NCBI GenBank assembly: GCA_036337035.1
Contig: JAYZFC010000002.1
Location: 115,051 to 179,050, forward strand
From: Pseudomonadota bacterium
Lineage (GTDB): Bacteria; Pseudomonadota; Gammaproteobacteria; Steroidobacterales; Rariloculaceae
Reading direction: 5' to 3'
Length of the DNA stretch: 64,000 nt
Shown: positions 34,242 to 38,682 of the stretch, one piece after another
Layout of the letters: every line of letters begins with the position of its first letter
Numbering within the stretch: position 1 is the stretch's first letter
Made by a program: the position numbers and the translations under genes
Notes under the pieces: model-generated
Databases searched by the model: none
Seen by the model: the letters and a program-made list of their open reading frames with translations, nothing else
What the model was told of the DNA's origin: nothing

Positions 34242-34931
34242 CTACAATGAAATTAAATTATCTAGTAATTGAGTCTTAACTTGCTCTCTGTCTAGAAAAT
34301 ATTTTTTATAACTATCAGTGTTTTCAGCCCTATTATCTACCACATCAGGAAAAAGTCCGAGCATACCGACAAACAATTCAGAAACCTCTCTTAATGCTTG
34401 GTTACCTCCATTATGAGCAGAAACATAATCACAATATCTTTTTTTCTTAATAAATTCTTCTAATAATGGACTAGATTTTTTTCGGATTAAGAAACGTACT
34501 CCGCAATCTTTTGCCATACCAATATCATTAATATCATCAAAAAAACAAGCGATATTAGTCTTATTAATGCTATATGCCAGACTGATTTTATTTATTGCTA
34601 ATGATTTATTTTTTACTCCGTAATAAATAGAATTAAAATGCTCTCTTTTTGCAAATCCTTCTGCTATAGAATTCTTTTCTCCAGTAATGATTATTGTTTT
34701 TGGTAAATTTCTATCCTTTAACCAAAGTGCAAACCTTAGCATATTTATACCCATAGCATCAGATTCATTAAACCCATTACCCTCATCTAAAAACTTATTG
34801 CCAGAATTAAAAACACCGTCCCAATCAAAAATAAGAGTATTAATATTTTTTAATTTTTCAACAAGATCCGAAAAATCAGAAATAAAATGACCGCCTAAAT
34901 TCTCAAATTGCTCTTGAATATTATCAAACAT
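34242..34931 (-). CDS. kdsC: KdsC/YrbI-like HAD phosphatase (Kdo-8-phosphate phosphatase)
   Basis: FDWDGVF motif I, IITG, K, DDIND, GG..ALRE; downstream of kdsA. Confidence 0.7.
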   Translation of the reverse strand: MFDNIQEQFENLGGHFISDFSDLVEKLKNINTLIFDWDGVFNSGNKFLDEGNGFNESDAMGINMLRFALWLKDRNLPKTIIITGEKNSIAEGFAKREHFNSIYYGVKNKSLAINKISLAYSINKTNIACFFDDINDIGMAKDCGVRFLIRKKSSPLLEEFIKKKRYCDYVSAHNGGNQALREVSELFVGMLGLFPDVVDNRAENTDSYKKYFLDREQVKTQLLDNLISL

Positions 34932-34937
34932 TTTTTA

Positions 34938-35975
34938 TCAAAGACGCTCTTGCCCTAAAAGACCTAGCTTAATAAGGTCTTGAATATCTAAAATACCTTC
35001 TGGTTTATTATTATTCTCTACAATAATGCTATCAACTTCTGATTTAGAAAATAGTTTTACTGCCTCCTCAAGATTTGCTTTGGAATTTATAATTACAGGA
35101 GATTTAGAGAAGCCTATCTTGCTTAATGAATCCTCAAGAGCAGATTGATCATTGCTCTGCAAATATCTTCTAATATCCCCATCAGTAAAAATACCTAAAA
35201 TATTATTTTTATTATCCACGACTGTTACTGCTCCCAAGCGTGATTCAGTCATCTTATTCATAGCAGCCTTCAATGAATCGCCTTCACTACAAGTTGGATT
35301 ATTTGTTCTAATTAAATCAGAAACTTTAACTGTAATAAGCTGAGTATGTTCCTTAAATTGCTCCGTACCAATAGAGCTTAAAGAGTTATCACAAAGATTC
35401 TTCATTACTTTATAAGGAACTGTACATACATGAACACCAGATAACAAAGCTTGCCTAACATGCTCAGGATAACGAACTGATGAAAACATTACCTTACTAG
35501 AGAACCCGTAATGATCAATTATATCTACACATTGTTCATATAGCTGAATCGCATCATGCCCTTGATCTTGCATTCTCCCAGCCAAAGGACAAACAAATGC
35601 GGCTCCTGCTGCCATTGCCATATAAGCTTGATTCAAAGTATAAATTAAATGAACATTAACTCTATGGCCCTTTTCAGTCAGCCTCTGGCAAGCAGTTACT
35701 CCAGCATTTGAAATAGGGACTTTAAATACAGGTTCATTTTTTAGAGGCAATGAAAGAATTCTATCAGCTTCCTTAAGTATCTCGTCTACAGACTCTCCTA
35801 AGGCTTCAACCTGTAATTCAGGAACCATGCCTGAAAGTTTTACAATTGCACCATCAATGTCAGTAATGCCATGACGATGCATAAAAGTTGGTGTAGTTGT
35901 TAATCCTTTTATAAATCCAAAATCTAATGCTTTTTCAATCTCTTCGAAATCTACAGAGTCTAAATATAGGTCCAT
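34938..35975 (-). CDS. Transaldolase/fructose-6-phosphate aldolase family domain fused to a KdsD/KpsF-type CBS pair
   Basis: YLDS, GLTTTP, VFKVP (Schiff-base Lys), GR.QD.G, SSVR; C-terminal GIFTDGDIRR and GILDIQDLIKLG. Confidence 0.85.
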   Translation of the reverse strand: MDLYLDSVDFEEIEKALDFGFIKGLTTTPTFMHRHGITDIDGAIVKLSGMVPELQVEALGESVDEILKEADRILSLPLKNEPVFKVPISNAGVTACQRLTEKGHRVNVHLIYTLNQAYMAMAAGAAFVCPLAGRMQDQGHDAIQLYEQCVDIIDHYGFSSKVMFSSVRYPEHVRQALLSGVHVCTVPYKVMKNLCDNSLSSIGTEQFKEHTQLITVKVSDLIRTNNPTCSEGDSLKAAMNKMTESRLGAVTVVDNKNNILGIFTDGDIRRYLQSNDQSALEDSLSKIGFSKSPVIINSKANLEEAVKLFSKSEVDSIIVENNNKPEGILDIQDLIKLGLLGQERL

Positions 35976-35987
35976 TTTTATACCTTC

Positions 35988-36836
35988 CTAAGATGTTTTT
36001 ATTAATTGCTCTCTAACTAAAGCATGAATATCTAGTAATGGACGAACAAAATCTGGTAATTGTTCCAAATAATACTGACTAGCTGCGTCACATAATGCAT
36101 CAGGTGGATTTGGGTGTGCTTCTATAAAAATTCCATCAACACCTGCTGCTACTCCTGCTCTAGATAAAACTGATAAGTATTCTCTACTGCCGCCTTTAGG
36201 GTCCTTGCTTGGTATGCCATACTTTCTTATTGTATGAGTAATATCAAAAATTACAGGATACCCTATCTGATTTAGCAGTAGAAAGCTTCTCGGATCAACT
36301 ACTAAATCATTATATCCAAATGTGTAGCCTCTCTCTGTCAATAAAATTTTTTCACTTCCAGAATCTTCAATCTTTTTTACTGGTTTAATCATATTATCTG
36401 GAGCTATAAACTGTCCATGCTTAAGATTAACAACTGCATTAGTTTTTGCTGCAGAGACTACTAATTCACTCTGCATACATAAATAAGCTGGAATTTGAAG
36501 TATATCGACAACCTCTGATGCTGGCGTTGCTTGATCTGGATAATGAATATCTGTTAGTAAGGGTAATTCAAATTCTTTCTTAATTTTTTCTAATATTCTC
36601 AATCCCTCATCTAGACCAGGCCCTTGATAATAATCTAGAGAGCTTCTATTATCTTTAGAGAATGATGATTTAAAAATTAAAGGTAAATTTAAATCTAATG
36701 AAATGCTTTTTAATTTCTCAGCAGTGCTTAGCATCATTGATTCTTTTTCAATAACACAAGGTCCGCATATTAAAAAGAGCTGATCAGATCCGCAAACCAC
36801 ATTACCAACTTTCACTTGCTTTTTTTCAATCATCAC
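35988..36836 (-). CDS. kdsA: 3-deoxy-8-phosphooctulonate synthase (metal-dependent type, divergent)
   Basis: GPCVIE, FKSSFSKDNRSS, TERG..FGY, FDITH, FIEAHP, CDA. Confidence 0.88.
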   Translation of the reverse strand: MMIEKKQVKVGNVVCGSDQLFLICGPCVIEKESMMLSTAEKLKSISLDLNLPLIFKSSFSKDNRSSLDYYQGPGLDEGLRILEKIKKEFELPLLTDIHYPDQATPASEVVDILQIPAYLCMQSELVVSAAKTNAVVNLKHGQFIAPDNMIKPVKKIEDSGSEKILLTERGYTFGYNDLVVDPRSFLLLNQIGYPVIFDITHTIRKYGIPSKDPKGGSREYLSVLSRAGVAAGVDGIFIEAHPNPPDALCDAASQYYLEQLPDFVRPLLDIHALVREQLIKTS

Positions 36837-38113
36837 AATAAGTCCATTCTCTCCAATAATTCATAATTATCTTTAGTTGCGCCTTGCCCCTCTAGAATAA
36901 CTTTTCTGGCCATTCTTCCAGATTCTAACCTAAATCTATCGTCATCTGATAATTTAGTTAAGGCTATCTTTAAGTCCCTACTATCATATACTTTATAACC
37001 AGCTCCTACATCAATCAAATTATTACCAACTTCTTCAAAACTATAGTTATGCGGACCAAAAATAACAGGAACACCAAGGATAGCAGGCTCCATTAAATTG
37101 TGCCCACCTTTATCACTAAATCGATAATATAAAGCCCCGCCAATAAATGCTATATCTGAAATCCCATAGAAATCTCTTAATTCTCCCAAAGTATCAACAA
37201 TTAAGATGCTTGTTCTATCCAATTTATTGCTTAATTCTATGAGCTCTGTTCTTCTAATTGGTAAAAAGTTAAAACTCTTTATCTTATGTTCAATATTTTT
37301 AGAATCATTAGGATACCTTGGAGCAATGATTATCCTTATTCTATCATTATCTAAAGATAATTCTGAGATTGCATCTAGAAATATATCTACCTCTTCTAAA
37401 TGAATACTCCCAGCAATAATTACGATATTATTCTCAGATAAGTTTAAAGATTTCCTAAGATTTATATTTTTACCTATTCTTGAGTCATCTATCAAATCAT
37501 ATTTCATATCACCAGTAGTACTTATATTTTTTGAATCAATACCTAACTCAATTAATCGATTCTTATAAACATCTTTTTGAACACAAAAATAAAAAATATT
37601 CCTCATTAAAGGTAGCATCAGATAAGTATTTTTAATTCTATTTAATGAGCCTTTTGATATTTTCGCATTAACAACAAAAATTGGAATTTTTCTCTTATTC
37701 AATAAATATATAAAATTAGGCCAAAAATCCGATTCAGCTACAATAACTAACCTAGGATTCAGTTTATTAATAAAAGAATTTACTATGAACGATAAATCAA
37801 AAGGGAAATAAATTACCTTACAATCTGTATATGTTTTAGATGCAAGCTCCAAACCAGTAGATGAGCAAACACTGATAATAATTTCATCAGATGGATATTT
37901 TTTTTTTATTAACTTAACTAGCTTTTTTAATGAAATTATTTCACCAGCTGATGCTCCATGCAACCAAATAGAAGAACTAGAAGATGGTACTAAATCATAT
38001 CCAAATCTAGAGAATATTCTATACAAATCTCCTTTAAATAAAAGTCTATAAAATAACCAGGGAAAGGAAATTATAATTAAGAGGAAATAGATTAAATTAA
38101 ATATTAGAGTCAT
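36833..38113 (-). CDS. waaA: Kdo transferase
   Basis: IWLHGASAGE, YFPFD, ESDFWPN, NAKIS, GSIH, APRYP, DTLGEL, GGHNLMEPA. Confidence 0.92.
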   Translation of the reverse strand: MTLIFNLIYFLLIIISFPWLFYRLLFKGDLYRIFSRFGYDLVPSSSSSIWLHGASAGEIISLKKLVKLIKKKYPSDEIIISVCSSTGLELASKTYTDCKVIYFPFDLSFIVNSFINKLNPRLVIVAESDFWPNFIYLLNKRKIPIFVVNAKISKGSLNRIKNTYLMLPLMRNIFYFCVQKDVYKNRLIELGIDSKNISTTGDMKYDLIDDSRIGKNINLRKSLNLSENNIVIIAGSIHLEEVDIFLDAISELSLDNDRIRIIIAPRYPNDSKNIEHKIKSFNFLPIRRTELIELSNKLDRTSILIVDTLGELRDFYGISDIAFIGGALYYRFSDKGGHNLMEPAILGVPVIFGPHNYSFEEVGNNLIDVGAGYKVYDSRDLKIALTKLSDDDRFRLESGRMARKVILEGQGATKDNYELLERMDLL

Positions 38114-38208: not shown

Positions 38209-38682
38209 CTACATGCTCGCTACCCGAGCTTCACCTCGACTACCAAATAAAACCTTAACTCGATCACCTTCATCAACAATACCTTCATTAGATTGAATAA
38301 TGGCAATGGTATTGCCATTGTCCATTTTGATCATAATCTCAATTCCTACCTCAGAAGTTAACTCTTTTTCTATTGCTTTACCGGCAGCTGCTCCTGCTAT
38401 AGCACCTACCGAGCCAGCTATAGGATTTCTTCTTCTGTCACCTACCTTTTGGCCAATATCTCTTCCAATTTGCGCTCCTCCCCAGGTACCTATGAATGAT
38501 GAATTACCCTCTATCTTTACTTCCTTTATAGATAAAACTTCTCCATAAGACACATCATATGCAGTCCTTACATCATTTTTAGAAAAAATATTACCCGAAG
38601 CGTTATAAGAAGCACAACCATTAGAAAGCAGTACAATACAAATAATTGTAATAAGTCTAAATAACATAAATTTCTCCTTCAT
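38209..38682 (-). CDS. Glycine-zipper outer-membrane lipoprotein (SlyB/Pcp-like)
   Basis: Lipobox SNGC; GA.AGA.AG zipper; EI.IKMDNG..I.I.Q; GDRV. Confidence 0.85.
   Translation of the reverse strand: MKEKFMLFRLITIICIVLLSNGCASYNASGNIFSKNDVRTAYDVSYGEVLSIKEVKIEGNSSFIGTWGGAQIGRDIGQKVGDRRRNPIAGSVGAIAGAAAGKAIEKELTSEVGIEIMIKMDNGNTIAIIQSNEGIVDEGDRVKVLFGSRGEARVASM

Follow-up and report, generated by a model that had tools for sequence, protein, structure and literature searches.

Introduction

Almost all Gram-negative outer membranes depend on 3-deoxy-D-manno-octulosonic acid (Kdo). To our knowledge, the enzyme KdsD, which supplies arabinose-5-phosphate (A5P) to Kdo synthesis, is regarded as its universal point of entry and as an antibiotic target. 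Here we analyse a Kdo operon in a 64,000-nucleotide stretch of a Rariloculaceae genome (Steroidobacterales, Gammaproteobacteria; GCA_036337035.1, contig JAYZFC010000002.1, positions 115,051 to 179,050), referred to below as the window. In this operon a gene that we call X lies between kdsA and a kdsC-like gene and encodes a transaldolase-type barrel followed by a pair of CBS domains. A first reading of the letters of the window (the original prediction) had proposed that a domain swap exchanged the SIS isomerase domain of KdsD for this barrel and so created a non-orthologous route to the Kdo precursor.

Two groups of described proteins resemble the two halves of X. KdsD, KpsF and GutQ share with it the CBS pair (positions 154–267 of the NCBIfam model TIGR00393; structures 4o9k, 3k2v and 3fna, by sequence and by fold), a slot adjoining kdsA in Bacteroidia and, presumably, the pathway step. 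They differ in that X has no SIS domain and a catalytic domain of another fold, so its mechanism must differ from theirs. The barrel is shared with TalC-type decameric transaldolases from Thermotoga maritima (TM0295, 1vpx), Bacillus subtilis (3r8r), Thermus thermophilus (1wx0) and Thermoplasma acidophilum (TacTal, 3s0c), at a Foldseek template modelling (TM) score of 0.91–0.94, a root mean square deviation (rmsd) of 1.4–1.6 Å and 26–31% identity, together with an Asp, a Glu, the Schiff-base Lys and an Arg/Ser/Arg phosphate site. X departs from these enzymes by an invariant His109, Cys129 and Leu131, by Thr or Asn at residue 28, by the added CBS pair and by its place in a Kdo operon rather than with pentose-phosphate genes. 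The E. coli fructose-6-phosphate aldolase (FSA) FsaA (1l6w) belongs to the same fold family (E 3.5e-11), but X is much closer to the transaldolases, and FSA has neither the CBS pair nor a link to Kdo genes. Sulfofructose transaldolase BmSF-TAL (8bc3, 8c4i), another small decameric TAL barrel (E 3.8e-18, Foldseek rank 45), was recruited to a new substrate and is a precedent for a new function in the TAL fold; it serves another pathway and lacks a CBS pair.

A full-text literature search, with subscription journals outside its coverage, found no natural transaldolase-type replacement of KdsD and returned only engineered pathways in which KdsD and FsaA are used together. Searching for cytidine monophosphate-Kdo (CMP-Kdo) together with CBS and isomerase found nothing relevant.

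A transaldolase-type barrel joined to a KdsD-type CBS pair

We consider, with a probability of about 70%, that X would supply A5P to KdsA and would thus be a non-orthologous replacement of the SIS domain of KdsD. The replacement proposed by the original prediction held in the distribution of the two genes, in the adjacency to kdsA, in the KdsD-type tail and in the invariance of the changed residues, which are taken up in turn below.

In X, PF00923 (TAL_FSA) covers residues 3–204 (113.8 bits against a cut-off of 27), and Pfam matches CBS as two stretches. The best CBS-containing NCBIfam model for the tail is TIGR00393 (KpsF/GutQ; 60.5 bits, cut-off 203.7), to which residues 215–329 align over the model part that stands behind the SIS domain. 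No SIS domain was found in X with Pfam or NCBIfam profiles, so X is not a KdsD although its tail is of the KdsD type. For the barrel, the nearest NCBIfam model is fsa/talC (TIGR00875), at 141.5 bits against an equivalog cut-off of 245.95, and X is also below the cut-offs of TIGR02134 (69.6 against 281.95 bits) and of the FSA model NF009296 (76.8 against 306 bits).

An AlphaFold model of X built on the alignment of related fusions reached a predicted local distance difference test (pLDDT) score of 91.7, and its barrel superposed on 1vpx over 212 columns (Foldseek TM 0.92–0.94, rmsd 1.4 Å). When the CBS pair was modelled alone (pLDDT 90.4), Foldseek ranks 1–3 were the CBS pairs of the arabinose-5-phosphate isomerases 4o9k and 3k2v, with 3fna at rank 12; 4o9k was also the best sequence match of the CBS pair in the PDB (5.7e-11). 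The KdsD/KpsF-like character claimed for the tail is therefore confirmed by TIGR00393 and 4o9k at the level of sequence and by 4o9k and 3k2v at the level of fold. Open reading frames (ORFs), Pfam and NCBIfam profiles likewise bear out the order waaA-kdsA-X-kdsC(-like) on the minus strand, and every motif that had been quoted is present: TTTP at residue 26, QVEA at 55, FKVP with Lys85, NVHL at 107, CPL at 129, GIFTDGDIRR at 261 and GILDIQDLIKLG at 327. The term domain swap is apt as a description of this architecture; as stand-alone barrels of the same type also exist, it may not give the order of events.

X and KdsD are largely exclusive among genomes

The host genome (1.22 Mb, 10 contigs, 90.6% complete) contains KdsA, a KdsC-like phosphatase, KdsB and WaaA. 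KdsA and the KdsC-family match are single copies, both of the operon, and WaaA is the sole PF04413 match. A SIS-type KdsD/KpsF was not found in this genome, where TIGR00393 gave two CBS-only matches, X being the better, and where the SIS-profile matches were GlmS, a very long GlmS-like protein and two GmhA-like proteins (157 and 159 bits). A canonical kdsD elsewhere, which the original prediction had named as an observation that would speak against it, was found neither in the host genome nor in the congener G028 (98% complete). Separately, outside the window, a frame of >1,000 amino acids around G000:C8:88786-92184 (locus L003) joins a GlmS-like amidotransferase and SIS core to long unassigned extensions, which is unusual for a 1.2-Mb genome.

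We then considered 85 genomes from 14 genera of the family, counting X at E ≤1e-20 and KdsD above its cut-off. X was present in 68/85 and KdsD in 15/85: 65 genomes had X only, 12 KdsD only, three both and five neither, the last being 63–89% complete. All 15 KdsD genomes fall in a single genus, represented by 17 genomes; the remaining 13/14 genera had no KdsD. Across 201 genomes of the order, full-length X was confined to the family (20/22 genomes, host included) and to G011 of another family; the other families gave CBS-part matches only, in ORFs of roughly KdsD length. One CBS-only row of this sample comes from an unpublished genome (G016), and dropping it changes nothing.

The same pattern was observed in another phylum. 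Among 301 Bacteroidia genomes, X was found in 58 and KdsD in 176 (E ≤1e-25, 164/176 above the cut-off; the unpublished genomes G362 and G447 are counted here), with 68 having neither. Both genes occurred together in one genome, against about 34 expected under independence, so that 57/58 of the X genomes had no SIS-type KdsD, and 52/58 of the X genes were at least 49% identical to X of the window. Of five carriers examined, Plebeiibacterium marinum D04, Marinilabiliaceae bacterium JC017 and one Flavobacteriales metagenome-assembled genome had X and no KdsD, Chryseolinea sp. T2 had both, and the complete Bacteroidia chromosome G264 had a degenerate fusion and no KdsD.

Linkage and co-inheritance of kdsA and X

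In the family, kdsA lies directly upstream of X in 20/20 loci, with waaA upstream in 17/20 and a KdsC-like gene downstream in 15/20. Among the matches listed from other taxa (Bacteroidota, Desulfobacterales, Gemmatimonadota and other Gammaproteobacteria), 36 loci contain the barrel; X is preceded by kdsA in 28 of them, and a KdsC-like homologue follows X in 21. At least two of the eight loci without kdsA (L056 and L078) are too short upstream to judge. In 5/5 IMG/VR contigs, too, kdsA lies upstream of a His-type barrel (L138–L142), which include three 336-residue fusions and one stand-alone 221-residue barrel (L142). As this stand-alone barrel still follows kdsA, it is the barrel that is linked to kdsA. 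KdsD itself lies beside kdsA or within about 2 kb of it in the four KdsD-bearing Bacteroidia examined, and X therefore occupies the position of KdsD.

Two side observations concern these loci. The IMG/VR contigs are classed as viral, and with kdsA followed by a barrel, CBS-fused or stand-alone, they may be real phage or misclassified cellular DNA. In addition, in 15/20 family loci (L027–L045) X or the kdsC-like gene is followed by another waaA-like gene, which is divergent (28–33% identical to the operon waaA); the window operon has none (single PF04413 match genome-wide).

Identity to KdsA of the window sets the KdsA groups apart. Relative to this protein, KdsAs adjoining X are 73–89% identical within the family and 62–69% identical in Bacteroidota, Desulfobacterales and Gemmatimonadota, compared with 41–47% for KdsAs from KdsD-bearing genomes of the same order and 43–51% for those from KdsD-bearing Bacteroidia. 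A maximum likelihood tree of 65 KdsAs (three duplicate rows dropped) parts KdsD-linked from X-linked sequences with support of 100/99, although long branches meet at this main split (program warning) and one viral row, L138, groups with the KdsD-linked sequences. The X-linked clade crosses phyla, and its 24 gammaproteobacterial members form one clade (100/98) nested among Bacteroidota rows. As these comparisons show, kdsA and X appear to have been inherited and transferred as one unit. We read the tree as a transfer of the kdsA-X cassette into this gammaproteobacterial lineage, in which KdsD would then have been lost, and we infer the direction from the nesting of the clade in a tree without a rooted test.

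Since X-linked KdsAs of several phyla group in a clade of their own, we also considered that the cassette might make a sugar other than Kdo, with X feeding another aldose phosphate to a KdsA-like synthase that has co-evolved. In favour of this, seven X genomes of the order sample (G008, G045, G114, G135, G149, G156 and G011) retain a second, native-type kdsA (45–47% identity), but they too are without KdsD. Moreover, the X-linked KdsA is the sole KdsA in the host, G028, G062, G076, G088 and others, with normal WaaA and KdsB present, and KdsA of the window clears both KdsA equivalog cut-offs. A different product is therefore very improbable. A difference in metal class between X-linked and KdsD-linked KdsAs was considered and rejected: 67/67 tblastn matches share the Cys-containing motif, mostly GPCV[IV]E, with GNC in four viral rows.

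The active site of the barrel

X was aligned residue by residue to the small transaldolase structures 1vpx, 3r8r, 1wx0 and 3s0c (phmmer E 2.4e-34 to 6.2e-26). It retains the N-terminal Asp6, Glu57, the Schiff-base Lys85 on strand 4 (FKVP) and the phosphate site Arg134/Ser166/Arg168; Asp6 and Lys85 match the Asp and Lys of 1vpx, 3r8r and 3s0c. Relative to the solved transaldolases, TTNP has become TTTP, NVTL has become NVHL (His109) and SPF has become CPL (Cys129, Leu131). We take the replaced Thr, Ser and Phe positions to line the catalytic water and the donor C1-hydroxyl site: in transaldolases the Glu-Thr pair presumably holds the water, with Ser and Phe following strand 6 (TalB, TacTal), and the position of Cys129 is presumably that of TalB Ser176, which binds the donor C1 hydroxyl, and of Ala129 in FSA. 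FSA carries Gln at the position of Glu57 and a catalytic Tyr at that of Leu131, with which the title of structure 4xz9, 'variant E60Q/F132Y', agrees. X thus has the full residue set of neither enzyme. From the functional-transaldolase set it keeps Glu57 but has His109 for Thr, Cys129 for Ser and Leu131 for Phe, and from the FSA set it has Glu57 and Leu131 instead of Gln and Tyr.

These changes are fixed across the family of fusions. Across 32 aligned fusions with an intact catalytic set, 29–75% identical to X, 20 barrel positions were invariant, including D6, T26, T27, P29, E57, K85, H109, L110, Q116, C129, L131, G133, R134, S166 and R168, and residue 28 was Thr or Asn. We also aligned 390 retrieved proteins to the barrel profile and counted the residues at positions 85/109/131. 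Lys/His/Leu was found in 243 fusions of at least 300 residues, and about 12 of about 255 such fusions had lost the catalytic set. Among short proteins, 58 were Lys/Thr/Phe (transaldolase type), 6 were Lys/Thr/Tyr (FSA type) and 23 were Lys/His/Leu, the last comprising fragments and true stand-alone barrels. As His109 and Leu131 co-occur, they define a separate subfamily, and the conservation supports the view that His109/Cys129/Leu131 constitute a fixed new active site rather than decay.

Possible routes to arabinose-5-phosphate

A5P is fructose-6-phosphate without C1 and has the same configuration as carbons 2–6 of that sugar. Because it shares these stereocentres, it would fit the TAL/FSA site as a lysine aldimine. 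Light & Anderson (2014), as cited in PMC7895386, reportedly described that A5P inhibits a transaldolase by covalent binding. In the mechanism that we propose, X would make A5P through lysine-Schiff-base chemistry, with A5P held as an aldimine on Lys85 and its phosphate in the Arg134/Ser166/Arg168 pocket. The substitutions to His109, Cys129 and Leu131 would remodel the surroundings of the donor C1-hydroxymethyl group and of the catalytic water, and the change to Cys129 would suit a donor without a hydroxymethyl group, i.e., an aldehyde.

If X does supply A5P, an aldolase working in the synthesis direction (glycolaldehyde + glyceraldehyde-3-phosphate to A5P), by analogy with FSA, has a little under an even chance of being the route. 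The original prediction had cited the interconversion of these compounds by E. coli FSA, and this is borne out by PMC6900487, in which E. coli FsaA cleaves D-arabinose-5-phosphate to glycolaldehyde and glyceraldehyde-3-phosphate with a KM of 0.65 mM and a kcat of 3.6 per s. A Schiff-base ribose-5-phosphate 2-epimerase is a less likely candidate; its enamine intermediate would be that of the aldolase, and His109 and Glu57 would carry the C2 proton. This route needs only a central metabolite, but we know of no precedent for it. Some other reaction, such as a lysine-independent isomerisation of ribulose-5-phosphate by Glu and His, appears slightly less likely again. A Schiff-base isomerase acting on ribulose-5-phosphate was rejected on chemical grounds, as a non-hydrolysable amino sugar would form, and an isomerase starting from this substrate must therefore be lysine-independent. 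The CBS pair inherited from KdsD would keep pathway-specific allosteric control.

Weighing A5P supply by X against the alternatives

Several points weigh against X as the source of A5P. The support for this role is comparative throughout, and the two-by-two tables of X and KdsD overstate significance because related genomes are not independent. X and KdsD occur together in G242, G243, G247, G461 and Chryseolinea sp. T2; of these, G243 and G247 also have both kdsA types (estimated contamination 4% and 1%) and may be mixed bins or true dual systems. The two GmhA-like SIS isomerases of the host genome could in principle make A5P. For the aldolase route, no glycolaldehyde source is encoded in the operon, and we know of no housekeeping source large enough for lipopolysaccharide (LPS) synthesis. 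A transaldolase role for X is possible in 33/68 X genomes of the family, where it is the only TAL_FSA-family gene. Finally, the degenerate fusions among the about 255 counted above mean that the fusion can persist without barrel chemistry.

The latter two points correspond to distinct explanations. X could be a CBS-regulated transaldolase or fructose-6-phosphate aldolase of central metabolism that happens to lie in a Kdo operon, with A5P coming from an unrecognised isomerase (e.g., a GmhA-like SIS protein, of which the genome has two, or a promiscuous sugar-phosphate isomerase). The retention of the transaldolase signature Glu57 with Asp6 and Lys85 is consistent with this, as is the lack of another TAL_FSA gene in those 33 genomes. 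However, invariant His, Cys and Leu replace the transaldolase Thr, Ser and Phe, X scores far below the fsa/talC cut-off, and another TAL, of the staphylococcal type, is already encoded in the host genome. In addition, none of the 12/12 KdsD-only genomes of the family has any TAL_FSA gene, so this family does not need transaldolase. This explanation also leaves unaccounted for the near-exclusive distribution with KdsD in two phyla, the KdsD-type tail and the co-inheritance with kdsA, and we consider it improbable. The second TAL is a 232-residue protein outside the window, at G000:C2:210817-213700 (locus L006; 207 bits against a cut-off of 282), that adjoins a GmhA-like sedoheptulose-7-phosphate isomerase and a short-chain dehydrogenase/reductase; the locus resembles a module for heptose sugars with a dedicated transaldolase.

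Alternatively, X could be mainly a sensor or regulator of KdsA or of Kdo flux, with the barrel binding A5P or another sugar phosphate and the CBS pair binding a nucleotide-sugar, or it could act further along the pathway, on a later intermediate. The degenerate fusions (P0131, P0271, P0272, P0130, P0144, P0148 and P0390) would fit such a role, as they have lost Lys85, His109, other residues and the Gly-Arg and Ser-x-Arg motifs and have kept GVFTDGDLRR and the rest of the CBS pair. One of them, P0390 (L081:7001-8008), has lost the catalytic Lys, His, Asp and Glu and lies away from any kdsA in the complete Bacteroidia chromosome G264. The covalent inhibition of a transaldolase by A5P, as reported, would be compatible with binding as well. 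Against this, 243 of the about 255 fusions keep the full Lys/His/Leu set, the 20 invariant barrel positions at 29–75% identity are typical of catalysis, the stand-alone barrel L142 still follows kdsA without a CBS pair, and genomes with X only would be left without an A5P source. We therefore consider a mainly regulatory X to be an outside chance, and A5P supply by X remains our preferred reading.

The degenerate fusions might have been expected beside a re-acquired SIS KdsD, but this was not so in G264, the sole genome examined, in which WaaA is present and neither KdsD nor canonical KdsA was found. G264 has three genes in a row at L136:5179-7841, encoding a 322-residue protein resembling ribulose-phosphate 3-epimerase (RPE), a protein of the 3-deoxy-D-arabino-heptulosonate-7-phosphate (DAHP)-synthase subfamily (359 bits, cut-off 335) and a KdsC-family phosphatase (136 bits, cut-off 107). 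No CBS domain was found in the RPE-like protein (E up to 1). With these three genes, the first steps of Kdo synthesis may have been replaced in yet another way. Separately, a protein atlas contains a cluster of 115 proteins of about 334 residues, mostly from Bacteroidota, that join an RPE barrel to CBS (score 0.78); these could be a second kind of barrel-for-SIS exchange, which we note as a lead only.

Features of the operon and its surroundings

The operon genes are closely spaced: waaA and kdsA overlap by 4 nucleotides, 12 separate kdsA from X and 6 separate X from the kdsC-like gene (Table 1). GGAAGG precedes the start codon of X, and a convergent trxB abuts the kdsC-like gene. WaaA is below the equivalog cut-off of NF004388 (276 against 438 bits), with a clear Pfam Kdo-transferase domain (157.8 bits). 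The phosphatase is only KdsC-like by its profile scores and is a probable Kdo-8-phosphate phosphatase. Directly upstream of waaA on the minus strand, at 38209-38682, lies a small gene for a glycine-zipper lipoprotein-like product of 157 residues, with weak Gly-zipper matches below the Pfam cut-offs, which is kept at the same spot in some relatives.

Table 1. Operon features and key codons of X, in window positions.
Feature	Position	Strand	Remarks
X (TAL/FSA barrel + CBS pair)	34938..35975	-	single ORF, 345 aa, no internal stop
X N-terminal TAL/FSA-type (beta/alpha)8 barrel, residues 1-212	35340..35975	-	Pfam TAL_FSA 1.2e-32
X C-terminal KdsD-type CBS pair, residues 213-345 + stop codon	34938..35339	-	Pfam CBS 2.9e-21
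waaA, Kdo transferase, first gene of operon	36833..38113	-	Pfam Glycos_transf_N 2.7e-46
kdsA, Kdo-8-phosphate synthase, X-linked clade	35988..36836	-	NF003543 332 bits (equivalog cut-off 242); other equivalog model 315.8 bits (cut-off 314)
KdsC-like HAD phosphatase, 229 aa, last gene of operon	34242..34931	-	NF007019 59 bits (cut-off 208), TIGR01670 53 bits (cut-off 107)
X Asp6 codon	35958-35960	-	
X Glu57 codon	35805-35807	-	
X Lys85 codon	35721-35723	-	
X His109 codon	35649-35651	-	
X Cys129 codon	35589-35591	-	
X Leu131 codon	35583-35585	-	
X Arg134 codon	35574-35576	-	
X Ser166 codon	35478-35480	-	
X Arg168 codon	35472-35474	-	

Discussion

Beyond the window, we think it fairly probable that TAL barrels of the His/Cys/Leu type, in most cases fused to the KdsD CBS pair, are an undescribed lysine-Schiff-base enzyme family for the first step of Kdo and LPS synthesis, acting as A5P synthase or as ribose-5-phosphate 2-epimerase. 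The family would be present in about one-fifth of the sampled Bacteroidia and in several other lineages, this gammaproteobacterial family among them, and would spread between phyla and onto viral-classed contigs as a kdsA-X cassette that displaces KdsD. Proteins of this type are publicly named 'transaldolase family protein', 'CBS domain-containing protein', 'TalC/MipB family fructose-6-phosphate aldolase' or 'transaldolase', and metabolic reconstructions built on these names would therefore show a false gap in LPS synthesis together with a false transaldolase.

The function of X can be assayed in an existing E. coli strain, the kdsD gutQ auxotroph, and carriers in culture include Plebeiibacterium marinum D04, Marinilabiliaceae bacterium JC017 and Chryseolinea sp. 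T2. Biocatalysis may gain a natural A5P-specific class I aldolase or epimerase. X also offers a clean natural case in which a regulatory module is retained and the catalytic fold exchanged. If X supplies A5P, the textbook Kdo pathway could be entered through either of two enzymes with unrelated mechanisms, the second of them common among Bacteroidota and among abundant marine Gammaproteobacteria.

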